Sequence record: NC_012638.1
Origin: Escherichia phage RB14
Direction: 5' to 3' (one strand)
Length of the DNA: 64,000 nt
Shown: piece by piece, positions 2,448-51,846 of the stretch
Position numbering within the stretch: the first letter of the stretch is position 1
Layout: the number at the start of each line of letters is the position of its first letter
Program-made: the position numbers and the translations under genes
The notes under the pieces: model-generated
Told to the model about the DNA's origin: nothing
Database searches by the model: none
Seen by the model: only the letters and a program-made list of their open reading frames with translations

Positions 2448-4267
2448 TACTGGCTCATCCATTCTTTACGAAGGTCAGCATTATCTCCCATGAGCATTTC
2501 AAAAAGCTCTTTCCAATTCTCAGGAAGTTTAACAACATCATATACTGGGTTTTGAATCATCTCACGATATTCAGATTTTTCCAAAGAACCAAGTCCTTTA
2601 ATATAACGGATGCTATGTTTAGGTAGAGCATCTTTGGCACTCTCATATTCAGCGACTGTATAAAACCATTCTTGTTTTTTACCGACCTGAGCGATGATTA
2701 CAGGAGTTTTGACAAAGCGAATTCTTCCTTGTTCAAACAGTTCTGGCCAATTACTAAAAAATCCGAGCAGAGAAGGATAAATGCTTCCTAAACCATCATG
2801 GTCAGCATCTGTCATAATAGCAATATTATGATAATTCAAGTTTTCAGCTTTTTCACCAAGAACTAATCCAGTGATTGCGCAAATATCAAATAGTTCTTTG
2901 TTTTTAAGCATATCAGCATATGACATACCCCAGCTATTAAGAACTTTACCACGCAATGGATAACCACCGTGAAGTTCTTTATCACGAACATCAATAAGAT
3001 ATCCGATAGCCGAATCACCCTCAGTCAAGAAAAGAGTAGTGTCAGCATCTTTACCACAAAGATTCGCTTTAATATGTTTATGAACCTTAGCTTTAGAAGC
3101 CTTTTTAGCTGCTTTAGTTTCTGCTGCTTTTTCTGCCGCCAATTTACGAGCCAAAGCAGCTTCAATAATCGGCATTAGAATTGCTTCATTATTTAGAATA
3201 GCGCGTGAAATCTTTTTAGCATCAAGCTGAATATGACTACGGATTTCACCAAATGGAGAAGTCAAACGCTCTTTAGTCTGAGAATCAAATCGCATGTTTT
3301 TCATATCACGAACAAACATAACGATAGTCAAACATTCTTTGACACGTGCTTTAGTCACATCAATTTTGAACTTACGTTTGATTTGTGGAATAAGGTCTTC
3401 ACAAATATCATCCATAACACAGTCAATGTGATGGCCACCATTCTTAGTATGAATGTTATTGACGTATGTTAATTGACGAAAACCATCCGGTGAACGACCA
3501 ACCGCAATAGAACAATTTTCTTGTTCTTGAACGATAGCATGCTCATCATATTGGCGTGCATATTTCTTAAAATTGCCCTGAACCTTTTTACCATTAAAGG
3601 TAAATTGAATATCAGGATAAACTACTGCAAGTGTCTGGAGACGATCTAGTGTAATGTCAAGATAAACTTGGGACAGCTCATTAGTTTCAAATGACATAAA
3701 ATCAGGAATGAAAGTAACACGAGTTCCTTTCCATTTTCCAGGAATATCTTCCCATGATTTATTTTCCATGCCATTTGAACAACGAACTACAATATTATTT
3801 TGACCATCACCAGTTTCACCGACAAACATCACAGAAAAAATGTTTGTCAAACTAGAACCAACACCATTCATACCGCCAGTGACGCGTTCTTTATCATCAC
3901 CAAAGTTACCACCTGCTTTTGGAATAGTCCACGCAGCAACTGGACCAGGAATTTCTTCACCGGTAGGTGTTTTGACCATCGCTTGTGGAATACCACGACC
4001 GTTATCTTCAACTGTTACTTGATTGTTTTTAATAGTAACATTAATTTTATTTGCGAATTTAAACTTAGTACGAATACCTTCATCTACTGAGTTATCGATA
4101 ATTTCATCAATAAGCTTAACAAGACCAGGTACATACTGAACACTTTCCCATTTACCAAACAGAAAGCGCTCATGCATTTCATTAGCAGAAGAGCCAATAT
4201 ACATGCCGCTACGCTTTTTGATATGTTCAATATCGCTCAGAATTTTAATTTCATTCTTAATCATCAC
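2447..4267 (-). CDS. 39: DNA topoisomerase II large subunit, unsplit (equivalent to T4 gp39 plus gp60), 606 aa
   Basis: GHKL ATPase and TOPRIM-type motifs in the translation; a single 606-aa ORF where T4 has genes 39 and 60 separated by mobA and a translational bypass. Confidence 0.9.
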   Translation of the reverse strand: MMIKNEIKILSDIEHIKKRSGMYIGSSANEMHERFLFGKWESVQYVPGLVKLIDEIIDNSVDEGIRTKFKFANKINVTIKNNQVTVEDNGRGIPQAMVKTPTGEEIPGPVAAWTIPKAGGNFGDDKERVTGGMNGVGSSLTNIFSVMFVGETGDGQNNIVVRCSNGMENKSWEDIPGKWKGTRVTFIPDFMSFETNELSQVYLDITLDRLQTLAVVYPDIQFTFNGKKVQGNFKKYARQYDEHAIVQEQENCSIAVGRSPDGFRQLTYVNNIHTKNGGHHIDCVMDDICEDLIPQIKRKFKIDVTKARVKECLTIVMFVRDMKNMRFDSQTKERLTSPFGEIRSHIQLDAKKISRAILNNEAILMPIIEAALARKLAAEKAAETKAAKKASKAKVHKHIKANLCGKDADTTLFLTEGDSAIGYLIDVRDKELHGGYPLRGKVLNSWGMSYADMLKNKELFDICAITGLVLGEKAENLNYHNIAIMTDADHDGLGSIYPSLLGFFSNWPELFEQGRIRFVKTPVIIAQVGKKQEWFYTVAEYESAKDALPKHSIRYIKGLGSLEKSEYREMIQNPVYDVVKLPENWKELFEMLMGDNADLRKEWMSQ

Positions 4268-4316
4268 TTATCCTCGTTTGGTTTCGGGAATATTATACTC
4301 CGGTAATCATAAAGCT

Positions 4317-4334
4317 AAAGGCCCGAAGGCCTTT
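4317..4334 (-). terminator. hairpin with UUCG tetraloop on the minus-strand transcript
   Basis: aaaggcc-cgaa-ggccttt inverted repeat (plus strand); reads GGCC-UUCG-GGCC on the minus RNA. Confidence 0.55.
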
Positions 4335-4603
4335 TATTTAAAACGGATAGTCGAATCCTTGAAGAATAGACCAGAACATACTGTTCCTTCTACTTTCTGC
4401 CCAGTAGGTCCAACAGCACGAAATCCAGTGTGTTGGAAATCATTTTCAGAGCAACCGAACCAGTTATATCCAGTGATTTCAATATTAGTAAAACCACTTG
4501 AAGACAAAACTTTGGTTGCATTATCAGCATCAGTACATCCTACTAAAGACACTGCTAATACTAATGCTGCGATAGAACGATTAATATATTTCATAATTTT
4601 CAC
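4334..4603 (-). CDS. putative lipoprotein, 89 aa
   Basis: N-terminal signal peptide with lipobox LVGC. Confidence 0.5.
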   Translation of the reverse strand: MKIMKYINRSIAALVLAVSLVGCTDADNATKVLSSSGFTNIEITGYNWFGCSENDFQHTGFRAVGPTGQKVEGTVCSGLFFKDSTIRFK

Positions 4604-4977
4604 TTAAATTTAATGGCTTGAAGAAGACTAATAACTCTCAAGCGACTTCTTTCATCTTTAACTGTAAAGGAAAGAGGGTCACCAGATTTCATAGTGATAG
4701 TGCATCCAAAATCAAAATTTTCGGGAACTTCTTCGAAGAAGTCAAATTCTTCAGCATAAATTAGAACATTACTCTGCATACTGTGAAGAATTTTTCCATT
4801 ATTTCCAGACGCTGTACTAATCATCGTAACATTATGACCTTTCATATCTTCAACGATAAATTCGCTTGTAGATATTACAGCATTAATAGAACCATTCCTA
4901 TAAATAGCAGACATTAGATATTTCTTTTCTTCGCCTTCGCGAATACGATATTTCTTACCGATTTTAAACATAATCAC
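4600..4977 (-). CDS. hypothetical protein, about 123-125 aa
   Basis: ORF table; tabulated start is GTG, an ATG lies two codons in at 4969-4971. Confidence 0.5.
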   Translation of the reverse strand: MIMFKIGKKYRIREGEEKKYLMSAIYRNGSINAVISTSEFIVEDMKGHNVTMISTASGNNGKILHSMQSNVLIYAEEFDFFEEVPENFDFGCTITMKSGDPLSFTVKDERSRLRVISLLQAIKFK

Positions 4978-5149
4978 CCTTTAAGTAAGTCGTAAAATCC
5001 ACCATTCACATGCTTAGGAGCAGAAGGCCGACGAGTAGACAAACGATGACATTTAGGGCAAACATCATTTTCTCGTTCAGAAATCTTTTTAATTTTTTCA
5101 TATTCATGCCCGCAGTCTTCAGATTGGCATTTATAATCATACATTGGCA
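4974..5149 (-). CDS. small zinc-ribbon protein, 58 aa (not in ORF table)
   Basis: my translation MPMYDYKCQSEDCGH...CPKCHRL has two CxxC pairs; stop overlaps the downstream start; fills the gap between flanking genes. Confidence 0.45.
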
Positions 5150-9067: not shown

Positions 9068-10387
9068 TCACACATAAAATACATCATAACGACCACGGGT
9101 GACACCAACATAAAGAAGTTGTTGAGCCAATTCAGCATCTGCGTAATGAATGCAAGGCGTATAAATGAAAGCACGGTCTACAGACATGCCCTGTGCTTTA
9201 TGGAATGTTGATGCAGGAAGTGCTTTCACTTTACTAAACTGTGATTTAGCATCCCAAAAATCACTCCATGGAGCTTTTCCGCCTTTGTTCCAATTTTTAT
9301 AAGTTTCTGCCGTTTTACCTAAAAATAGGTTAAACTTATACAGTTCTTCATCAGATGAAATTATTTTAATCTTTTCACGATAATATTCATCATCGCCATA
9401 AGTTTCTACTGTTAAATCCCAGTGACGAATTAGATATTCTCCAGGAACACCACGAGCTTTAACAAAGGTTGATGTATACTCTGCTTCTATAATACGAACT
9501 AATTGTCCGTTGTTAAAAATAATTTCTGACACAGGCTTTCCATCAATTTTATATGTTTTAATTAATGGTTCCTGCATTACAATAATTTCACCGACAATAA
9601 AATCTTTATCAGTTTCAAAAATCTTTTTACGAATAATGCTATTTAACTTATCAACAGATTTATTCGTAAATGCCATTACGCGATTTTCAAACAAATCATC
9701 TAGAGATTTGACGATTGAAAAATAATTTACCATAAAATCGCGTAAAGCGGTATCACCAGTAAATCCACGTACTCCATGTCCGTCAACAACTTTATCATAA
9801 ATCCACTTACCGTTACGAACGTCAGTAGCTACATCAATAATAGGAGCATTACTGCGTTTAACTTCAGTGAGTTCACACTGATAAAAATCTTTATGTGTAA
9901 AGAATGGACTGATATAAGCAGTGTTTTCTCCTGGGTCAACAGGTCTAATCTGCTTATTATCACCTATTCCAATTATAGTACACCACGGCGGGATAGTTGA
10001 AAGCAGAATTTTAAATAGCTTTCTATCATACATTGACACTTCATCGCAGATTAATACCCTGCATTTAGCTAAATCTGGTACTTCCTTCTGCTCAAAGAGG
10101 ACATTTTCTTCATATGTTACTGGGTTAATTTTAAGAATACTGTGAATAGTACTCGCTTCTTTCCCTGATAGTTTTGAAAGAATCTTTTTAGCCGCATGCG
10201 TAGGAGCTGCTAAAATAATACCAGTTTCACCCGTAGATATTAAAGCTTCAATGATGAACTTAGTAAGAGTAGTCTTACCAGTACCAGCAGGTCCATTAAT
10301 AGTTACATGGTGTTTCTTTTCTTTAATAGCCTTCATAACAATGTTAAAGGCATTTTTCTGGCCTTCGGTCAAATCATCAAATGTCAT
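9068..10387 (-). CDS. dda: Dda DNA helicase (SF1B), 439 aa
   Basis: Walker A GPAGTGKT; length and sequence match T4 Dda as I recall. Confidence 0.95.
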   Translation of the reverse strand: MTFDDLTEGQKNAFNIVMKAIKEKKHHVTINGPAGTGKTTLTKFIIEALISTGETGIILAAPTHAAKKILSKLSGKEASTIHSILKINPVTYEENVLFEQKEVPDLAKCRVLICDEVSMYDRKLFKILLSTIPPWCTIIGIGDNKQIRPVDPGENTAYISPFFTHKDFYQCELTEVKRSNAPIIDVATDVRNGKWIYDKVVDGHGVRGFTGDTALRDFMVNYFSIVKSLDDLFENRVMAFTNKSVDKLNSIIRKKIFETDKDFIVGEIIVMQEPLIKTYKIDGKPVSEIIFNNGQLVRIIEAEYTSTFVKARGVPGEYLIRHWDLTVETYGDDEYYREKIKIISSDEELYKFNLFLGKTAETYKNWNKGGKAPWSDFWDAKSQFSKVKALPASTFHKAQGMSVDRAFIYTPCIHYADAELAQQLLYVGVTRGRYDVFYV

Positions 10388-43755: not shown

Positions 43756-44015
43756 TTAAAATATTCTCGCAGTTGGTCAAATCCACCAATATGACTTCCA
43801 TCAGGAGCAAATACCTGGGGCATTGTCAAGCCGATTTGAGTATCACGACCTAGTTTAGTCAGAAGCTCAGCAATTTTCTCATCATCAAAAACACCTTTTT
43901 CCGGCATAATGTTGATAAATTCAAACGGCTGTTTCTTCACGGTCAAAAGACGTTTTGCATTATCGCAATACACACATTTATGAATGTTGCTATCATAACC
44001 ATATACTTTAAACAT
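43752..44015 (-). CDS. nrdC: thioredoxin/glutaredoxin NrdC, 87 aa
   Basis: CVYC active site; matches T4 NrdC as I recall. Confidence 0.9.
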   Translation of the reverse strand: MFKVYGYDSNIHKCVYCDNAKRLLTVKKQPFEFINIMPEKGVFDDEKIAELLTKLGRDTQIGLTMPQVFAPDGSHIGGFDQLREYFK

Positions 44016-44016
44016 A

Positions 44017-44259
44017 TTATTCCTTAATTCCTAGTACTTGTTTAAAAGTCTCGTCGTAATCAAGACTTTGGCCCGTTTGTTCTTTATGTTTGTATATAAT
44101 ATCACTTACTTCTGATAGCATATTTTTATATGAACGAGTTAAAGCAGATTTAAGCACGCTGTATCTATCAGGAAATTTACCATGTTCATTATAATAAGCT
44201 ATTGCTAATTCACGGACTGCCTTTTCAGCAGCCTCCATATATTCTTTACGCTTGGTCAT
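44017..44259 (-). CDS. nrdC.1-position protein, 80 aa
   Basis: ORF table. Confidence 0.5.
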
Positions 44260-44261
44260 TT

Positions 44262-44651
44262 TTAATCCAAAATATTATTAGGCATTGGTTGAACACTCAC
44301 AAGTTCTTTAAAGAACTCAGTAGAGTCAGGCAATTTAACCATTTCCGGAGCATGCTTACTGAATTTATGTTTACATTGACGGCATTTATATTCAAGCTCT
44401 GGTTTACGCCAGTTAATCAATTGAACTTGTTCAGTTCCACATTCAGGGCAATTAGGAACGTTTTTAGAAGCCCTTTCACGTCGTTCAACCATAGCCATAA
44501 TAGCATCCCATGCTGGAGGTTTAAAATCTAAATCGTCGCAGCCGTGAATCTTTCCACGCATTTCCATATCATCTTCCTCACCAGCCATAATAATTTTAAT
44601 TAAACTGGAATTACTTGAAGCTGCAATGTCTTCTAATAGACGCTTTTTCAT
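44262..44651 (-). CDS. zinc-ribbon protein, 129 aa
   Basis: CPEC...CRQC motif. Confidence 0.5.
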
Positions 44652-45577
44652 TTCAATACCTCAATAGCATTACGTAAACCATTTGCTTTTGCATTAAGAG
44701 CTTTTAATAATTTGGTGTGTTCTGCAATTTGGGCTTCAACTTCAATCAAACGAGCATTGAGATATTCGCGTTCTTCACTCAGATTATCAGCCTTTTCTGC
44801 TTTAGGTTCTTTTACAACTTGCTTATATGTATTAGGGTTCTTCAGTTTAATTAGAATGCGTGAACTGTACAGCATTGAACCATTATCTTCGGTTTCGTCA
44901 TACATTTCCACTACGTCCATCATCTCCACCATCGTGCAGAGTTTATAAGACAACGAACGAATAATTTTGTTGTGCTTATTAATTTCTCTAGCTGTCATGG
45001 TGCCGAGATTACGTGAGTAATAATAAGGAACCTGGATATTAATTAATACTGATGAACCACCTGGCTTGTGTGTTACTTCATCAGCAATAACCCAATCCTT
45101 AACATGAACTGTATTTGTACGGTCATCGCCCGCGGTAAATAGTTTACGAGCATGCTTAAAAAGCATATTCACTTGGTCATTGAATTGACAAGCGAATTTA
45201 TCAGCAAATTTAGTTTCGGGAATGGTAGATAACCAATCAGCCAAATGGGTCTTTTTAACATCGTTAACAATAGTAAATTGAACCAAATCGGTTATAGATG
45301 TCGCAGATTTAATGAAGCTCGGCTTCATAAAGTTTTTAATGTTATCACGAGCTACAGTAGAAGATAACATACGAGAACGTTTAAACCATTCAAGCAAATT
45401 GCCTAACGAATGAGAATAAGCGTTTTGAGTATCTTTACAGATATGATTTTCCTGACCAACATATTGAAGGAAATCACGAAGAATATTATTGATTACTGCT
45501 CTGTGCCCGATCTGATAATTACGGTGTTTAGTAATAAGACTATCAAAATAATCAATATAATGTTTACGAGTTTTCAT
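44648..45577 (-). CDS. paralogue A with C-terminal coiled coil, 309 aa
   Basis: one of four tandem ORFs with similar architecture and heptad-rich C-termini. Confidence 0.55.
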   Translation of the reverse strand: MKTRKHYIDYFDSLITKHRNYQIGHRAVINNILRDFLQYVGQENHICKDTQNAYSHSLGNLLEWFKRSRMLSSTVARDNIKNFMKPSFIKSATSITDLVQFTIVNDVKKTHLADWLSTIPETKFADKFACQFNDQVNMLFKHARKLFTAGDDRTNTVHVKDWVIADEVTHKPGGSSVLINIQVPYYYSRNLGTMTAREINKHNKIIRSLSYKLCTMVEMMDVVEMYDETEDNGSMLYSSRILIKLKNPNTYKQVVKEPKAEKADNLSEEREYLNARLIEVEAQIAEHTKLLKALNAKANGLRNAIEVLK

Positions 45578-45629
45578 GTTCTTCTCACTTGGTTAATGAT
45601 TTATGCTCCGAGCCATCCTTGGCTTTAAA

Positions 45630-46631
45630 TTACTTAATTAACTGTAAAGCTTGTTCCAAACGATCAAGACGATTAACAGATTCTTCCCAAATCTTTTTAG
45701 CCTGCTCATATTCTTTCTGCGCTTTATTAGAAATTTCTAGAACTTCCTTATAAGCTTTTTCTAGTGCAATAACTTCTGGACGAATTTCTACCGGTTCAGG
45801 TGAATCATCAAGATTATCCATTAGTTCCTCAAGGGTAGTTTCTTCTTTAGGAGTATTCACAATTTCATCACATTTTTGTTGATAAATTTCTTTATCAGTA
45901 GGTGAGTACGCGCACTTTACTTCACGAAGACTAATTACAATTTTATATCCTTCCCAACCACCCATATTTTTGAAAGGATATGTATGAATACTTTTTACAG
46001 TTTCCATACAATCCAAAGCCGTCTCTAATTGATGAGTTATAGTGCTAGCAATTGAGAAAAATTTATTAATATTCTTTTGGTTAGCTTCTGGTGTAAAAAA
46101 TTCGTAATTCACAAAAATAGCTACTTTATTTTTATCAAGCTCATATTCTTTTACGATAATCATATCAGAAGCCAAAGGATGAATTTGACGATAATCGCCA
46201 TAACATAATTTAGAAGCTGATTTCAGAATTTGTCCTTTAAAAAGTCTGAAATTACTAATCCAACGACGAGTAAAAATATTCTTAGGGTCTTCTTTGATAT
46301 TAAGATGATAAGAATTAACATCACCGAACCAATTGTATCCTATTACACCTTTAGTTCGTTTAATTTCTTTCCCAAAATTACCAAGAATATCCCGATTAAC
46401 CAAATATGAAAGAAGACGAGACCCTTTAAAGATTATCTTAATATCATCTTTATCTACACGGCTAGAAATTTCACGAACTTCATGAATAAATTTACTGGAA
46501 GAAACAATACTTGCATCAATACTGCTGAGCCATTGATTGATAATAGAAAGAACAGCGTTCTGACTAGACATGGGTTTAACTTTATCATCAATAACGCTAT
46601 TGAATGATTTGATATATTCGTTACGAGTCAT
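45630..46631 (-). CDS. paralogue B with C-terminal coiled coil, about 333 aa
   Basis: GAGGAG Shine-Dalgarno before the ATG at 46629-46631, downstream of an early promoter. Confidence 0.55.
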   Translation of the reverse strand: MTRNEYIKSFNSVIDDKVKPMSSQNAVLSIINQWLSSIDASIVSSSKFIHEVREISSRVDKDDIKIIFKGSRLLSYLVNRDILGNFGKEIKRTKGVIGYNWFGDVNSYHLNIKEDPKNIFTRRWISNFRLFKGQILKSASKLCYGDYRQIHPLASDMIIVKEYELDKNKVAIFVNYEFFTPEANQKNINKFFSIASTITHQLETALDCMETVKSIHTYPFKNMGGWEGYKIVISLREVKCAYSPTDKEIYQQKCDEIVNTPKEETTLEELMDNLDDSPEPVEIRPEVIALEKAYKEVLEISNKAQKEYEQAKKIWEESVNRLDRLEQALQLIK

Positions 46632-46659
46632 ATTAATCTCCTCAGTAGAAAGTAAAAAC

Positions 46660-46689
46660 ATTATACCACATCCTTGTGGTAAAGTAAAC
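46660..46689 (-). promoter_or_regulatory. early promoter, exact duplicate of the one at 2418-2447
   Basis: 32-bp identity attataccacatccttgtggtaaagtaaacta. Confidence 0.6.
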
Positions 46690-47708
46690 TAGTTCAGTGC
46701 ATTTAATGCATTGTTCAGTTTAGAACGTTGCTTCGTGAGATTTTTGACTTTTTCTTGTGCTTTTTCTAGCATCTTTTCAGCTTCTAACACTTCATTGGTC
46801 GCTTTAACGAGTTCATCATCTACTGCCTTAAGAGACTTCTCAATCGCATCCGCGTGCCATTTTTCAACAGGTTTAAGACTCGGATTTTCAATAGGAAGAA
46901 AATTCACTTTATTAAATTTCCATGCATCTTTATTACCTGAGCTATACATCCAAAATTTAGGATCGTTTGATGAGCAATTAGATAAATTTAAGTTATCTTG
47001 CACTTCCTGCTTTTTCTCTTGCGGGACTTCATCCTTTCTCAAAAAATCGTATTTAAATGAAACGATCATATCAAGTTCATACGTTGTTGTATGTTCCCAA
47101 TTTCGCTCAAAATGAGGTAAAATCTTAGACTGAACAGCAGAAACAACATCCATATACTTAAATGCTTCTGTCAGCTGTGATTTAAGACATTCACAAATTG
47201 AAAGAGAATTTTTAGTACTAGGTTTAAAGCTAATTCGTGCAGTTCTATTATTTTCTTTTAATGGTCTTACTTCCATCTGAAGAGTATAACCATCAAATTT
47301 CAGATTCTTTAAGTTAATATCAGAGCCCTTTAATCGACTAGCAGTAGACAAAATTTGCTTTAATTGTTTACGAAATAGAGCAATAAATCTCCATTCAATA
47401 CGATAATGATTTGGATTAAAAAATCCTGTTGATAAATCAACCTTACTCTGACCAACGCCTTGAACAAATAGAGGATTTTTATAATCAATAGTTTTACAGA
47501 AATCGGTGAGCTGCTCACGAGCAGTCATTTGAGTAATATACCCTGCTTCATTAAAATGACGTAACCATTCACTGCTATTCATATACTTAAAGTGAATATC
47601 ACGATTAACTTTATCAGGGTCTAAATTATTTTGGCACAAAAATGTCATAACATTACGGGTATAGCTGGCATTACGAACCATATCTTCAATTTGAGAACGA
47701 GTTTTCAT
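46689..47708 (-). CDS. paralogue C with C-terminal coiled coil, 339 aa
   Basis: ORF table; same architecture as neighbours. Confidence 0.55.
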   Translation of the reverse strand: MKTRSQIEDMVRNASYTRNVMTFLCQNNLDPDKVNRDIHFKYMNSSEWLRHFNEAGYITQMTAREQLTDFCKTIDYKNPLFVQGVGQSKVDLSTGFFNPNHYRIEWRFIALFRKQLKQILSTASRLKGSDINLKNLKFDGYTLQMEVRPLKENNRTARISFKPSTKNSLSICECLKSQLTEAFKYMDVVSAVQSKILPHFERNWEHTTTYELDMIVSFKYDFLRKDEVPQEKKQEVQDNLNLSNCSSNDPKFWMYSSGNKDAWKFNKVNFLPIENPSLKPVEKWHADAIEKSLKAVDDELVKATNEVLEAEKMLEKAQEKVKNLTKQRSKLNNALNALN

Positions 47709-47716
47709 GGTGTTCC

Positions 47717-48619
47717 TTAAGATTTAAGTAAATCAACAATTTTAATTAATTTTTCACGCTCAGATTTAGCTTTACTACTCAATCCAGATAGTCTGAAAAT
47801 TTCATCGTCATACTGTTGAATAGAAATATTCAGCTCTTCAATTTGCTTATTAAAATAATCAATTTGCTCAGAATGTTTTTCGTTACTACGAACTGGTACA
47901 GGGTTTGTAGGCAATTTAGTTGAACTGGATTCATCCGGGCGATAAATTAAAATACAACTTGAACCAATAGGGCATTTTGCACCAGATGAATATTCTAATG
48001 TTCCGGCTTCTTTTAAAACTTCAAAAGCTAAACAGAGATGATGCCCCATATTAACATAATCAGTAGAGCGAGCTCTGATGTAATAATCATCTCCACGAGT
48101 ACTAAATTTAAAGCATTTAAGGTCTTCTGTATTATTGGTCTTAAAAATCATTTGTTTATCTAGACCTTTAGCTAATCGAGCGCCTAATGCTAATAATCGT
48201 CGTTGATTTTCCCACAAATCTGCGATCATTTGGTCAAATGATAATTTCGGCATTAGTCGACCATAAAGGTCGTATCCTTTATTATAATTGCGAAGGATTT
48301 CACTCGCATTAATACGAGACAACGCTCCAATTTTATTAAGGGCTTTCATGATGCGATTAGATAAACCCATTCCAGACCCGTTTGTTCGTTGTAAATGTTT
48401 ATCTAATCCAAACCCAATATCAACTTTAAATTTATCTAAAATTTCAGCATGAACATCTCTGTCAATAACATTCAAATCCAAAGTTGGGTTAAATCTATGA
48501 AAAAATTTATCTGGCTCTCCACGACGAAGTACAGTCCATTCATTCAATTTTTTATTAACTAAAGATTTAATTACTGCATTGACATTATTAATTACTACTG
48601 ACATATTTTCCTCACTCAA
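47717..48619 (-). CDS. paralogue D with C-terminal coiled coil, 300 aa
   Basis: ORF table; same architecture as neighbours. Confidence 0.55.
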   Translation of the reverse strand: MSEENMSVVINNVNAVIKSLVNKKLNEWTVLRRGEPDKFFHRFNPTLDLNVIDRDVHAEILDKFKVDIGFGLDKHLQRTNGSGMGLSNRIMKALNKIGALSRINASEILRNYNKGYDLYGRLMPKLSFDQMIADLWENQRRLLALGARLAKGLDKQMIFKTNNTEDLKCFKFSTRGDDYYIRARSTDYVNMGHHLCLAFEVLKEAGTLEYSSGAKCPIGSSCILIYRPDESSSTKLPTNPVPVRSNEKHSEQIDYFNKQIEELNISIQQYDDEIFRLSGLSSKAKSEREKLIKIVDLLKS

Positions 48620-49020
48620 TTTTCAATTTTACTAAATACGCAGAATATGATGGAAAAGACTATATAAGCACCGCATACAGATTGAACTAATACCATTCCA
48701 AAGAACCAAACAATATTATCAAACCATGTCTGTTTTACGTCGAAAGGACGTAAACTTACAGTAATATTATCGCCTTTTTCTATTGATGAATACATCTCTG
48801 GTGAAATATATTCGCTAAATCTATAACCGTCTTTAAGTTCATATACAGCAATAAACGATAAACTAGACCCCTTTCCTTGAGTTCCTGTAAAGGTATTAAC
48901 TACAGTAACATCATAATCTTTATAATGCATATAATCATTAATTGCGTAATAACCATATGCAATTACTATACATAAACAACATATCAATAAATTCAATCTT
49001 TTAATTATCAACTGTTTCAT
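48616..49020 (-). CDS. membrane protein with two terminal transmembrane segments, 134 aa
   Basis: hydrophobic N- and C-termini; stop overlaps the start of paralogue D. Confidence 0.55.
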   Translation of the reverse strand: MKQLIIKRLNLLICCLCIVIAYGYYAINDYMHYKDYDVTVVNTFTGTQGKGSSLSFIAVYELKDGYRFSEYISPEMYSSIEKGDNITVSLRPFDVKQTWFDNIVWFFGMVLVQSVCGAYIVFSIIFCVFSKIEN

Positions 49021-49075
49021 AATAATCTCAATTAAAAGGGCTTAGAACCATTATACCATCCTTGGTATAAAGCGG

Positions 49076-49603
49076 TTATGCGAGTACCGTCTTTAACCGT
49101 TCTTCAAACTTCCGAAGAGTATTTTGGCGTTCAGCTCTTTGCTTTTTGTAAGTTTCAATACGCTCTGAAATGAGAGTGTATCGTTCATTTACTGATTCTT
49201 TCATAAAATCAGGAATTTCACGAGAAGCTTTAATCTCGTCAAATTTATCAATAACAGCTTGCTCTTCAGCAATTAAGTTATCATACATCAAAATATCTTT
49301 CTTGATGAACTCAATATCTTCTTGAGTTACACGAGATAATTTAGATGCTTTATCCTTTTTGTACTGTTCGTTAGTATCACGAGACCAGTGTAATGTACGA
49401 TTTTTATTCGTATTCTTGTAAATTTCTACAATACCAATCTCATCGATAATAACGATCCAATTCCAACGGGATTTGTAAATTTGTCCTCCATCAACAGTGA
49501 TTTCACCTCCGATTGAGATGTCATTAAAGAACTTGCTTTGTGCTTCAGATTTAAATTTACCATCGTTGTAATTTACCAGGTTGAAAATATCTTTAGCGTT
49601 CAT
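49076..49603 (-). CDS. hypothetical protein, about 175 aa
   Basis: GGAGG Shine-Dalgarno before ATG at 49601-49603; the table ORF reads through the promoter leader. Confidence 0.5.
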   Translation of the reverse strand: MNAKDIFNLVNYNDGKFKSEAQSKFFNDISIGGEITVDGGQIYKSRWNWIVIIDEIGIVEIYKNTNKNRTLHWSRDTNEQYKKDKASKLSRVTQEDIEFIKKDILMYDNLIAEEQAVIDKFDEIKASREIPDFMKESVNERYTLISERIETYKKQRAERQNTLRKFEERLKTVLA

Positions 49604-49631
49604 TTTGTGTTCCTCCGTAGTTGATAGTTGT

Positions 49632-49661
49632 ATAGTACCACAGAGGAACGGTCTTGTAAAC
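49632..49661 (-). promoter_or_regulatory. early promoter with conserved leader
   Basis: plus atagta 49632-49637, gtaaac 49656-49661. Confidence 0.55.
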
Positions 49662-49663
49662 AA

Positions 49664-49978
49664 CTAAAAGAAACTTCTTTCACAATTTTTTCCACTGAAC
49701 CACGCGCTCACTGCTTTCTTAGTCTCAGGAGCAGTGTTATCCATAAACCATTCAAAGGCAGCCTTTTTATGATTCTGGAGGGCTTCTCGGGCTTTAATCT
49801 GCTCACGGTCTATTAACACTAACATATGAGCCTTTCTTGTCACCAGGGGCTTCTTATGATTTTTTGAATATTCCCAATCATTTGTCCATCGCATTGTCGT
49901 TGCGAACTGATGAACCGCGTCTTTAATTTTAGTTTCATAAATTTCACGAGCCTTTGAGTATAACATCATTACCTCCAT
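49664..49978 (-). CDS. hypothetical protein, 104 aa
   Basis: ORF table. Confidence 0.5.
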   Translation of the reverse strand: MEVMMLYSKAREIYETKIKDAVHQFATTMRWTNDWEYSKNHKKPLVTRKAHMLVLIDREQIKAREALQNHKKAAFEWFMDNTAPETKKAVSAWFSGKNCERSFF

Positions 49979-50048: not shown

Positions 50049-50768
50049 TTACGATTCTTCTAAATGTCTTTTCTGAAAAGTTGATACCATACTACGATAC
50101 GGTTCATTTGGATACCCATGTTTTATAGCTTCCTTTGTAAATTTTCTCCATCCATATTTAGTTTCTTTCCAAAGCTCGAATAATTCATCTTCATATTGCC
50201 ATATAGTTAAATGAGAACGCTTTGCAGCTTTAATTCCATTAATATGCTTTTCTTTTACTACAGGATTGCTTAGTTTCTTTTTAATAATATTACTAACTTT
50301 TCTAACAAAAACTGGGTCCTTATATCGTTGAGAAGTTTTTATTGAAGTGTTTAATTTAGCTTCCGGCGTGGATGTAACCTCTTTCATCTTTTTCTTCATA
50401 TGCTGTATATGATTAGGATTTTTCCATAAATTTATAGAATGCTTTTTGCATTTTATCCTAGTTTCATCTGCAACCTTTCCTCCTTCACCCCCGTATGACA
50501 GGTTAACACAGTTTTTTCCATATTTCAATTTACCTGCCATGATATATAATATTTCAGCTTGTACCATTTTATCATAATTATCAAAAACTTCTAAAACCGT
50601 TTTTGATAATATGTGGTCATTTGACACTTTTACACGTTCTATATAATTTCCACTACCAACATACGAATCATTGATGTTATTAGTTATATGTCGACCATAA
50701 TAGTATTTCTTAATACCTGTCTTTAAATTTAATATTTCAGTTTTATAGATAGTAAAATATTTTTTCAT
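50049..50768 (-). mobile_element. free-standing GIY-YIG homing endonuclease (Seg-like), 239 aa
   Basis: N-terminal TIY...YYG-R module (FTIYKTEILNLKTGIKKYYYGRH) and basic C-terminal half; start overlaps the upstream gene stop. Confidence 0.6.
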
Positions 50769-51745
50769 TTTAATAATACCGTTTCAGCAATTTCTTCCCA
50801 ATGATTTTTGTCGGTCATAATAAAGTCAGCAAGATAAAGAGCAGTACGCAGTGAAACATTGCGTAAACGATTAACATTGACTTTCATCCATGATAATGCT
50901 TTATAAGTTTCTTCATCAGAAAGACCGCGCTTTTGCATCATGTCGGTTGAAAGAATAACATCTTCAACCCTGACCATAATTTCTTCATTAGTGTGAACAC
51001 CCAAATCCAAATAAACTGAGCGGGACACTAATGCTTGTAAATGTGGAGCAAGTTTAGTACCACGGTCTAATTCGCGGTCAATGTCAACGTTTGTGATAAA
51101 AACAATCGTTCCTTTAAATTCAAACTCACGCTCAATGCCTTTTTCTTCTAAGTAAGAAGATGCAGTGCTCCAGCAGACTTTACGGGTCTCTCCAGTGTCC
51201 AGAGCAGCTTTTAGAAGATTAAGAATGTCCATATCAGAGAAAACATCCACATCATCAATCAAAAGGACAGAATTCTCTTCACGATTATTCCAAAGCTGTT
51301 CATAAAGACCGATACCAGAGATTTTACCATTAATGCTTTTATATTCAATGTATCCAATATCATTTGCTTTATTTAAAGCTTTATCCAAAGAATACGTTTT
51401 ACCAATACCTGCTGCTCCCGAGATAATTAATGAACGAATGTTTCCGTTAATAATACCATTCGTCATCATTCCCATAACATTAAATCTTTTATTAATGCGG
51501 GTTTTCATATCTTCATATGATTCTTTAACTTCTTCAACTTTTACGCCATCATATGAAATGTCTGATTTGTAAACCCAAACACCGCGACGTTTACCGTCAA
51601 TTTCAACAAAAACTTTACCATCTCCTTGTGCATCTACCGGAGCATTATCCGGGAACCATTCGCCTAAGAGCTCAAAAGTTCCAGAGATTTCTTTACCGAA
51701 GTAGATACCCTTATTGATAGTTACAGTTTTCATTTTATTCTCCAA
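50765..51745 (-). CDS. AAA+ ATPase, 326 aa
   Basis: Walker A GAAGIGKT and Walker B LLIDDVD, preceded by a roughly 100-aa N-terminal domain. Confidence 0.65.
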   Translation of the reverse strand: MENKMKTVTINKGIYFGKEISGTFELLGEWFPDNAPVDAQGDGKVFVEIDGKRRGVWVYKSDISYDGVKVEEVKESYEDMKTRINKRFNVMGMMTNGIINGNIRSLIISGAAGIGKTYSLDKALNKANDIGYIEYKSINGKISGIGLYEQLWNNREENSVLLIDDVDVFSDMDILNLLKAALDTGETRKVCWSTASSYLEEKGIEREFEFKGTIVFITNVDIDRELDRGTKLAPHLQALVSRSVYLDLGVHTNEEIMVRVEDVILSTDMMQKRGLSDEETYKALSWMKVNVNRLRNVSLRTALYLADFIMTDKNHWEEIAETVLLK

Positions 51746-51826: not shown

Positions 51827-51846
51827 AGGGAGCCCGAAGGCTCCCT
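51827..51846 (-). terminator. rho-independent terminator (UUCG hairpin plus U-run)
   Basis: agggagcc-cgaa-ggctccct with plus A-run 51822-51827. Confidence 0.65.

Follow-up and report, generated by a model that had tools for sequence, protein, structure and literature searches.

A diverged protein family at the nrdC.3 to nrdC.6 locus of a T4-like phage and its possible role in counter-defense

Gene content of the locus

The stretch of Escherichia phage RB14 DNA analyzed here (sequence record NC_012638.1; 64,000 nucleotides (nt), referred to as the window) is a segment of a Tequatrovirus (T4-like) genome in which four consecutive open reading frames (ORFs) follow the gene of a small membrane protein. 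The four ORFs are the known, mostly uncharacterized T4-type genes nrdC.3 to nrdC.6, and we report that their products appear to belong to one superfamily, which includes the orthologue of a T4 protein with a published activity against the host defense Dsr1. Gene names were taken from annotated relatives and the T4 reference record; the closest public relative over positions 44000-49700 is KarlGJung (Bas37), with a DNA identity of 97.7%. All genes of the region lie on the minus strand, in the transcription order nrdC.10, a 239-residue homing endonuclease, nrdC.9, nrdC.8, nrdC.7, nrdC.6, nrdC.5, nrdC.4, nrdC.3, nrdC.2, nrdC.1, and nrdC (thioredoxin). The five ORFs named in an original prediction, which was made from the letters of the window alone, were all found at their coordinates on this strand, as follows.

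48616..49020, minus strand: nrdC.7, 134 residues, membrane protein with two transmembrane segments; phrog_2547; carries the note 'predicted membrane protein' in the T4 record
47717..48604, minus strand: nrdC.6, 295 residues from ATG 48604, the open frame reaching TTG 48619; PF26899
46689..47708, minus strand: nrdC.5, 339 residues; DUF7235 (PF23882); orthologue of the T4 anti-Dsr1 protein
45630..46631, minus strand: nrdC.4, 333 residues from ATG 46631, the open frame reaching 46661; PF26897; phrog_1435
44648..45577, minus strand: nrdC.3, 309 residues; phrog_1435, in common with nrdC.4, its closest paralogue

The start of nrdC.6 is most likely ATG 48604, which gives 295 residues as in annotated relatives, and not TTG 48619; that of nrdC.4 is most likely ATG 46631, which gives 333 residues and has GAGGAG just before it, and not 46661. 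With the corrected nrdC.6 start, the overlap of nrdC.7 and nrdC.6 disappears, so that the ATGA at nrdC.3/nrdC.2 (44648-44651) is the sole true stop-start overlap. The paralogues had been predicted to be joined by such overlaps; they are instead separated by gaps of ~8, 57, and 52 nt. We also note that the T4 reference record (AF158101.6; positions 4267-5094 of comparison locus L018) annotates nrdC.6 with 275 residues, to which the window protein aligns only as far as residue 258. The protein has 295-296 residues in other T4-like records and in the T4D annotation used for HIDEN-SEQ, and the short version may reflect a frameshift or a sequence difference near the tail.

Relationship between the four proteins

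Pairwise comparison detected a relationship for one pair only, nrdC.3 and nrdC.4, which share 24% identity over 225 residues. The families were also compared as profiles with hhalign; the underlying alignments drew on homologues found in databases and on 13 loci from a diverse set of T4-like phages. This comparison matched nrdC.3 to nrdC.4 with a probability of 97.9% (E = 4.5e-13) and nrdC.4 to nrdC.5 with a probability of 92% (E = 6.8e-7). The latter match survived removal of the C-terminal helices, when the N-terminal domain was compared alone (probability 86%, E = 5e-6), indicating that coiled-coil composition is not its cause. By the measure of these profiles, nrdC.3, nrdC.4, and nrdC.5 are homologous.

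The profile of nrdC.6 did not match that of any single family significantly (E = 0.007-0.09, probability 5% or less), as would be expected if nrdC.6 were not a true paralogue but had converged on the same layout, or had acquired only its tail, leaving a family of three members. Against the merged nrdC.3/4/5 profile, however, nrdC.6 gave E = 9.6e-4 over 71 columns, compared with 0.13-0.52 for reversed-profile nulls, and the alignment matched, in the same order, two motifs that are conserved across all families: G-x-L-S...A...L-x-N-F/Y and a helix of the form ...ILKSA-K...GD-R / ...LLALGARLA-G-D-Q. Structure prediction bears on the question from both sides. AlphaFold2 (AF2) was run on monomers of nrdC.5 and nrdC.6, and the models (mean predicted local distance difference test (pLDDT) scores of 75.3 and 75.6, respectively; predicted template-modeling scores of 0.61-0.65) present an identical order of elements, namely N-terminal helices, a helix pair, a β-hairpin, a helix, a second β-hairpin, a disordered linker, and a long C-terminal helix. 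When used as Foldseek queries against viral models, both retrieved the same six targets (E from 1e-7 to ~1e-3, probability ~1.0), which are uncharacterized proteins of 300-335 residues from phages of other T4-like genera (Mineola, fHyAci03, PM2, Acj61, fHe-Yen9-01, and Merlin); yet the template-modeling scores (TM-scores) to these common targets are low (0.2-0.5), and entries of the nrdC.6 family are missing from the top 50 Foldseek matches of the nrdC.5 model. Further, nrdC.6 has the terminal tail motif and the basic head in common with its paralogues (see below) and adjoins them in every genus examined. Given the weak profile match, the order of secondary structure, the common Foldseek targets, and the tail motif, nrdC.6 probably belongs to the nrdC.3/4/5 superfamily as a more distant relative, and we consider convergence unlikely. 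The prediction of tandem paralogues thus stands for nrdC.3, nrdC.4, and nrdC.5, and for nrdC.6 it has a weak sequence match (E ~1e-3) to which structural support is added.

Database searches place nrdC.5 apart from the other three proteins. The window nrdC.5, which is 90.9% identical to T4 NrdC.5, matches PF23882 (DUF7235) over residues 1-339 with 411.5 bits (cut-off 30), and nrdC.3, nrdC.4, and nrdC.6 show no match to this model at E up to 1. Precomputed Pfam assignments are PF26897 for the nrdC.4 family and PF26899 for the nrdC.6 family; kinship to nrdC.5 exists at superfamily level only. When 1.84 billion proteins were searched exhaustively with a hidden Markov model of the nrdC.5 family, no further family appeared at E up to 1e-3; the nrdC.5 family itself comprises only 13 representatives in this set, including some fragments or chimeras. 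Nothing meaningful came from sequence searches of PDB, NCBIfam, and Rfam.

Three candidate leads were set aside. First, a match of nrdC.3 to the N-terminal part of XerD reached 18 bits against a cut-off of 279. Second, the common Foldseek target A0A1V0DXL6 (fHe-Yen9-01, 313 residues), at first guessed to be an nrdC.3 allele, comes from a Tegunavirus with no such gene in the stretch examined. Third, protein P0231, in which an nrdC.5 tail sits on an unrelated head, was rejected as a portable tail module; its source is a metagenomic contig of 803 nt that resembles T4-like phages at positions 480-803 only, and it is therefore most likely a chimeric assembly. We found no paper on the family relationship of nrdC.3-nrdC.6 or on the mechanism of NrdC.5. 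The genes themselves are known in T4, and the superfamily link is a modest new element.

Predicted layout: basic heads and helical tails

The four proteins are predicted to have a common layout of a basic head of ~225-250 residues, a disordered and variable linker, and an amphipathic C-terminal helix of 50-60 residues. This agrees with the architecture that had been proposed for all four ORFs, three of which are clearly homologous by profile comparison. In the AF2 models of nrdC.5 and nrdC.6, the head consists of an N-terminal helical bundle followed by a two-layer α/β sandwich. The heads of all four have isoelectric points (pI) of 9.2-9.4, and the whole proteins of 6.6-9.2; the low pI of acidic DNA-mimic anti-restriction proteins of the Ocr or Arn type is thus not seen. 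Searches of Pfam, PDB, and NCBIfam together with structure comparison revealed no enzyme fold or catalytic motif in the four proteins, in keeping with the absence of a catalytic motif noted originally.

The tail helix is charge-balanced and heptad-periodic. Periodicity was scored with a home-made best-register heptad score, which is neither COILS nor MARCOIL, and compared with 300 shuffles. The nrdC.5 and nrdC.6 tails were not equaled by any shuffle (0/300 each), and p values of 0.023 and 0.017 were obtained for nrdC.3 and nrdC.4, respectively. All four tails show hydrophobic heptad periodicity over at least four heptads without helix breakers, which we used as the criterion for a coiled coil. 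The tails map as follows.

47720..47881, minus strand: nrdC.6 tail, residues 247-299 (300-residue numbering); modeled helix-turn-helix, residues 247-276 and 282-299; heptad score 1.85
46692..46868, minus strand: nrdC.5 tail, residues 281-339; AF2 helix at residues 281-338 (58 residues), pLDDT 80-92; heptad score 1.85
45633..45779, minus strand: nrdC.4 tail, approximately residues 295-343 (343-residue numbering); windows scoring at least 1.6 up to residue 343; motif ...LDRLEQALQLIK
44651..44803, minus strand: nrdC.3 tail, approximately residues 259-309; heptad score 1.73 at residues 272-299

In nrdC.4, the best single heptad window is internal, and qualifying windows run on to the C terminus. 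The claim of heptad-rich C-terminal tails is confirmed by the shuffle test for all four proteins and by the AF2 helices, modeled with good confidence, for nrdC.5 and nrdC.6, and the four tails are predicted to be coiled-coil-like. A similar terminal motif occurs in all four families, including ...LDRLEQALQLIK in nrdC.4 as well as ...RSKLNNALNALN and ...REKLIKIVDLLKS, with the consensus R/K-x-K/R-L-x-x-A-h-x-x-L-K (h, hydrophobic residue). Because this motif is conserved among the paralogues, we considered whether they might co-assemble through their coiled coils into mixed oligomers, a multi-headed counter-defense hub in which each head would be specific for a different immune sensor. In that scheme, the targets would be, for example, TPR capsid sensors of the Dsr1/Avs7 type, and phages would exchange head cassettes with one another at the hairpin-promoter elements described below. 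We regard both parts of the scheme as improbable.

The neighboring membrane protein nrdC.7

The 134-residue protein with transmembrane segments at both ends that had been predicted upstream of the paralogues is indeed present as nrdC.7, whose hydrophobic segments span approximately residues 4-28 and 103-131 (Kyte-Doolittle windows above 1.6 at both ends). The adjacency and common orientation of nrdC.7 and the paralogues in Tequatrovirus would suit a single envelope-associated module in which the four proteins dock on nrdC.7 through their coiled coils; such a module might act, for example, in superinfection exclusion or in the timing of lysis. In other genera, too, a small membrane protein recurs within the cluster: Dhakavirus/Gaprivervirus-type loci (L006-L014, ~9670-10170; 9951-10166 in L006) encode a phrog_7899 protein of 67-71 residues that has two transmembrane segments and whose gene is flanked by nrdC.6 and the nrdC.5-like gene. 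However, this protein belongs to a different family and occupies a different place than nrdC.7, which is itself absent from the Dhakavirus/Gaprivervirus-type clusters and lies downstream, beside nrdC, in Mosigvirus. The link between the paralogues and the membrane protein that had been suggested is thus not conserved, and the envelope-module explanation is poorly supported for this reason. Further, neither reading of the sequences nor the AF2 models of nrdC.5 and nrdC.6 reveals a transmembrane segment or signal sequence in the paralogues, and plasmid-borne nrdC.5 was enough to restore infection by a T4 deletion mutant, which may or may not have kept nrdC.7 (PMC9391042). We conclude that nrdC.7 is probably a neighbor that stands outside the function of the paralogue family, and that an envelope module is very unlikely.

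Copy number, alleles, and selection

The number of family members varies from two to four per genus. All four (nrdC.3-nrdC.6) are present in Tequatrovirus. Dhakavirus/Gaprivervirus-type loci lack both nrdC.3 and nrdC.7, and their members are nrdC.6, nrdC.4, and a divergent form of nrdC.5. In Mosigvirus, there are just two members, one resembling nrdC.6 and the other nrdC.3, and the nrdC.7-like membrane gene is located downstream. Among 50,697 phage records, nrdC.6 was found in 740, nrdC.3 in 652, nrdC.5 in 580, and nrdC.4 in 552, and nrdC.6 is both the most conserved and the most widespread member. The nrdC.3 gene, found in Tequatrovirus and Mosigvirus, falls into discrete old allele classes of at least 90% (~95%), ~75%, and ~60% identity, with a synonymous divergence (dS) of ~1 between alleles; the window and T4 carry two different alleles, which are 60% identical.

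The original prediction regarded tandem diversification as a sign of diversifying selection. Gene-wide ratios of nonsynonymous to synonymous divergence (dN/dS) against six close relatives were 0.03-0.17 for nrdC.6, 0.07-0.22 for nrdC.5, 0.11-0.39 for nrdC.4, and 0.13-0.31 for nrdC.3, indicating that purifying selection acts on each orthologue, with some relaxation in nrdC.3 and nrdC.4. Gene-wide positive selection was rejected, as dN/dS stays below 0.4 everywhere, and the families are already separate in distant T4-like genera. Amino acid variation within Tequatrovirus is concentrated at residues ~30-60 and in the linker. Natural variants include frameshifted genes or pseudogenes, fusions, and internal duplications: in P0056, nrdC.5 (residues ~145-270) is fused to nrdC.3 (residues ~137-309) with nrdC.4 deleted; in P0058 (Shigella phage Sf25), ~80 residues of nrdC.6 are duplicated in tandem; and in locus L005 (10944-11997), nrdC.4 is split into two ORFs. 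The cluster would thus appear to change by gain and loss of genes and by allele exchange at hairpin-promoter cassettes, and not by rapid point-mutational diversification.

Proposed counter-defense function

Published work provides a function for one of the four proteins. A T4 deletion mutant fails to plate on cells carrying dsr1 from ECOR17, and infection of dsr1 cells is restored by expressing T4 nrdC.5 (Srikant, Guegler, and Laub, eLife 2022, PMC9391042). In Dsr1, a SIR2 effector is joined to a TPR sensor, which recognizes the phage major capsid protein (2026 preprint, PMC12803255). In addition, the T4 genes from nrdC.3 to nrdC.8 are classified as non-essential, disruptions being present at 96% or more of their TA sites (HIDEN-SEQ preprint, 10.1101/2025.11.20.689424). 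The anti-defense role guessed at originally is therefore supported, directly for nrdC.5 alone; the guess was largely right, but nrdC.5 already has such a function in the literature. It also fits the flanking genes, since the same preprint names T4 nrdC.1 as an inhibitor of Septu and the nrdC.8 orthologue bas37_0203 as one of Druantia III.

On balance, we lean towards the view that nrdC.3-nrdC.6 are an old, diverged family of early, dispensable, non-enzymatic counter-defense proteins that act stoichiometrically through basic, target-binding heads and oligomerizing tails. Each head would bind and neutralize a different host immune sensor, and the tail would oligomerize the protein and so increase its avidity. 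The window nrdC.5 is expected, from its 91% identity to the T4 orthologue, to overcome Dsr1 in the same way. By analogy with the action of DSAD1 on DSR2 (see below), nrdC.5 would most likely bind Dsr1 early in infection, ahead of the late capsid protein that triggers the TPR sensor, and thereby prevent activation of the Dsr1 NADase. Homology to nrdC.5, genomic context, dispensability, and presence/absence behavior suggest that nrdC.3, nrdC.4, and nrdC.6 could be counter-defense factors directed at other systems.

Several observations weigh against this view. The experimental support concerns nrdC.5 only and was obtained with the T4 allele, and the place of nrdC.6 in the family rests on a weak sequence match together with structural matches of low TM-score (0.2-0.5). 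Further, nrdC.6 shows 95-99% identity across the majority of Tequatrovirus records, an unusual degree of conservation for a protein in an arms race, and gene-wide dN/dS is low in all four genes (0.03-0.39). The main text of the HIDEN-SEQ preprint highlights none of nrdC.3-nrdC.6 on the clinical hosts tested, and one of its conditional tables lists the four genes without effect (log2 fold changes of -0.31 to +0.47, q = 1; 10.1101/2025.11.20.689424). Finally, the basic heads (pI 9.2-9.4) suit nucleic acid binding equally well. In an alternative account, only nrdC.5 would serve in counter-defense, and the other paralogues would be host-takeover or nucleic acid-binding factors that retain the ancestral basic head, with nrdC.3, nrdC.4, and nrdC.6 acting, for example, as modulators of transcription or of phage or host RNA or DNA. 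We hold this account to be possible, though doubtful, both as a whole and for the roles given as examples.

If the family-wide counter-defense view is right, its interest is both basic and practical. The nrdC.3-nrdC.6 genes occupy ~4 kb of the best-studied phage T4 without an assigned mechanism, and the link to nrdC.5 makes nrdC.3, nrdC.4, and, more tentatively, nrdC.6 specific candidate inhibitors of other defense systems. The head-linker-tail layout offers targets for mutagenesis, namely the variable residues ~30-60 and the linker. DSR1 was still called 'poorly characterized' in a 2026 paper, and a direct inhibitor would be a useful probe because the system is still poorly understood. Of practical value would be the prediction and engineering of the host range of T4-like therapeutic phages. 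These findings extend a known theme and do not overturn current ideas.

Hairpin elements at the gene borders

Three intergenic hairpins, upstream of nrdC.7, nrdC.4, and nrdC.3, have stems of 5-7 bp and a constant AGGA loop, and resemble the PeSL cassettes (early promoter plus stem-loop) of T4-type phages.

49053..49068, minus strand: hairpin between nrdC.8 and nrdC.7, ATACCA-AGGA-TGGTAT running into TATAAT; no good -35 hexamer in the window
46660..46688, minus strand: early-promoter-like element upstream of nrdC.4, TTTACT-17 nt-TATAAT, TG-extended, with a 7-bp hairpin (46664-46681) in the spacer; PeSL-type
45611..45624, minus strand: hairpin between nrdC.4 and nrdC.3, AGCCA-AGGA-TGGCT followed by GGAG; degenerate -10-like box (CATAAAT)

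The PeSL promoter consensus of the PST/T4 pair is TTTACW-N17-TAYWAT (PMC4122927). It is matched at 46688-46660, and the copies at 49053-49068 and 45611-45624 lack the full pair of hexamers; at the latter, the -10-like box is TATAAA in relatives and CATAAAT in the window. The region shows no excess of simple promoter matches (44 against an expected 38 ± 7), and we therefore report the best-supported element alone. This is the one consensus-like element that answers to the internal early promoter of the original prediction, and it is kept in T4 and other relatives.

The stem-loop characteristic of PeSL is present in these elements. The stems co-vary between copies and genera (ACCA/TGGT, GCCA/TGGC, TCCA/TGGA, AACCA/TGGTT), and RNA folding z scores were -2.58 (49053-49068), -1.65 (46664-46681), and -0.8 (45611-45624; not significant by itself). 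The positions of the elements at these gene borders are conserved in T4 and in more distant genera (comparison loci L001-L006, L010, L015, L016, and L018), and the hairpin after nrdC.8 is nearly identical in distant genera whose flanking proteins share only ~45-50% identity. The borders concerned are those of nrdC.7/nrdC.6, nrdC.4, and nrdC.3, the units that are present or absent between genera. PeSL cassettes have been proposed to mediate modular shuffling (PMC2839356, PMC4122927), and the conserved border elements fit this proposal. Directly 3' of the hairpin upstream of nrdC.3, in the window and in related copies at the equivalent position in other genera, lies GGAG. This is the motif cut by T4 RegB, and its position after the hairpin raises a possible role in mRNA processing.

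Flanking genes

nrdC.8 (49076-49603, minus strand, 175 residues from MNAKDIF...) is 99.4% identical to bas37_0203 and is its orthologue by position. It also ends in a long charged helix and has a marginal Foldseek match to a 175-residue KPV15 protein; profile comparison showed no similarity to the four families (E = 0.036-0.61), and we do not claim it as a fifth, shorter paralogue. On the other side, nrdC.1 (44017-44259, minus strand, 80 residues) is 98.8% identical to T4 NrdC.1. Together with nrdC.5 and with gp49.2, which is encoded a few genes beyond and inhibits OLD in T6 (PMC13096335), these genes indicate that the whole stretch from 49.x to nrdC.8 is an anti-defense island.

Four further features were noted around the cluster. 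nrdC.2 (44262-44651, minus strand, 129 residues) contains a zinc ribbon with four cysteines (Pfam Zn_ribbon_8, E = 6.6e-6, below cut-off) and is highly variable among close relatives, with 98-129 residues and 61-100% identity. The 239-residue ORF between nrdC.10 and nrdC.9 (50049-50768, minus strand) matches PHROG 314 'homing endonuclease' (E = 1.8e-30); it has no tblastn match in T4 or Bas37, is present in L003, and represents a mobile-endonuclease insertion beside the cluster. nrdC.10 (50765-51733, minus strand) shows weak P-loop matches, all below cut-offs (AAA_14, E = 5.8e-5; nSTAND3, E = 4.7e-4), and is a putative ATPase at the edge of the island. Upstream of nrdC.10, a strong 8-bp GC-rich hairpin (51827-51846, both strands; AGGGAGCC-TTCG-GGCTCCCT) is followed by a T-run on the minus strand and is likely an intrinsic terminator that separates transcription units; an overlapping Rfam match to L20_leader is probably spurious (28.9 bits against a gathering score of 58.7).

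Comparison with known systems

The two-layer sandwich of the head brings to mind the RNA polymerase α N-terminal domain (Rpb11-like fold). However, identity to it is 5-15%, the sandwich is very common, and de novo designed proteins and tail terminators score equally well; the likeness by itself gives no evidence of homology or of polymerase binding.

The hairpin elements are alike to the PeSL cassettes of T4-type phages (Arbiol et al. 2010; Comeau et al. 2014) in that they combine an intergenic early-promoter-like element with a stem-loop and lie at borders of variable genes in a hyperplastic region. In contrast to published PeSL cassettes, the stem-loop here is placed within the spacer of the promoter, its AGGA loop is constant, and two of the three copies in the window are without a good -35 or -10 hexamer. 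A role of these elements in recombination is suggested by differences in gene content alone.

DSAD1 of phage SPbeta is a direct protein inhibitor of the SIR2 defense DSR2. The analogy with nrdC.5 is one of function (no kinship in sequence or fold was found, nor was one tested for): in both cases, a small non-enzymatic phage protein would oppose a sirtuin NADase that is triggered by a phage structural protein. The sensor domains of DSR1 and DSR2 differ, and binding of NrdC.5 to Dsr1 is our inference.

The closest known counterpart is T4 NrdC.5 itself (DUF7235; Srikant, Guegler, and Laub 2022). nrdC.3, nrdC.4, and nrdC.6 lack a match to the DUF7235 model and are filed elsewhere (PF26897, PF26899); nrdC.4 and nrdC.3 are nevertheless detectable homologues at profile level, and the window nrdC.5, with 90.9% identity, the same genomic position, and a full-length Pfam match, is the T4 protein's orthologue.

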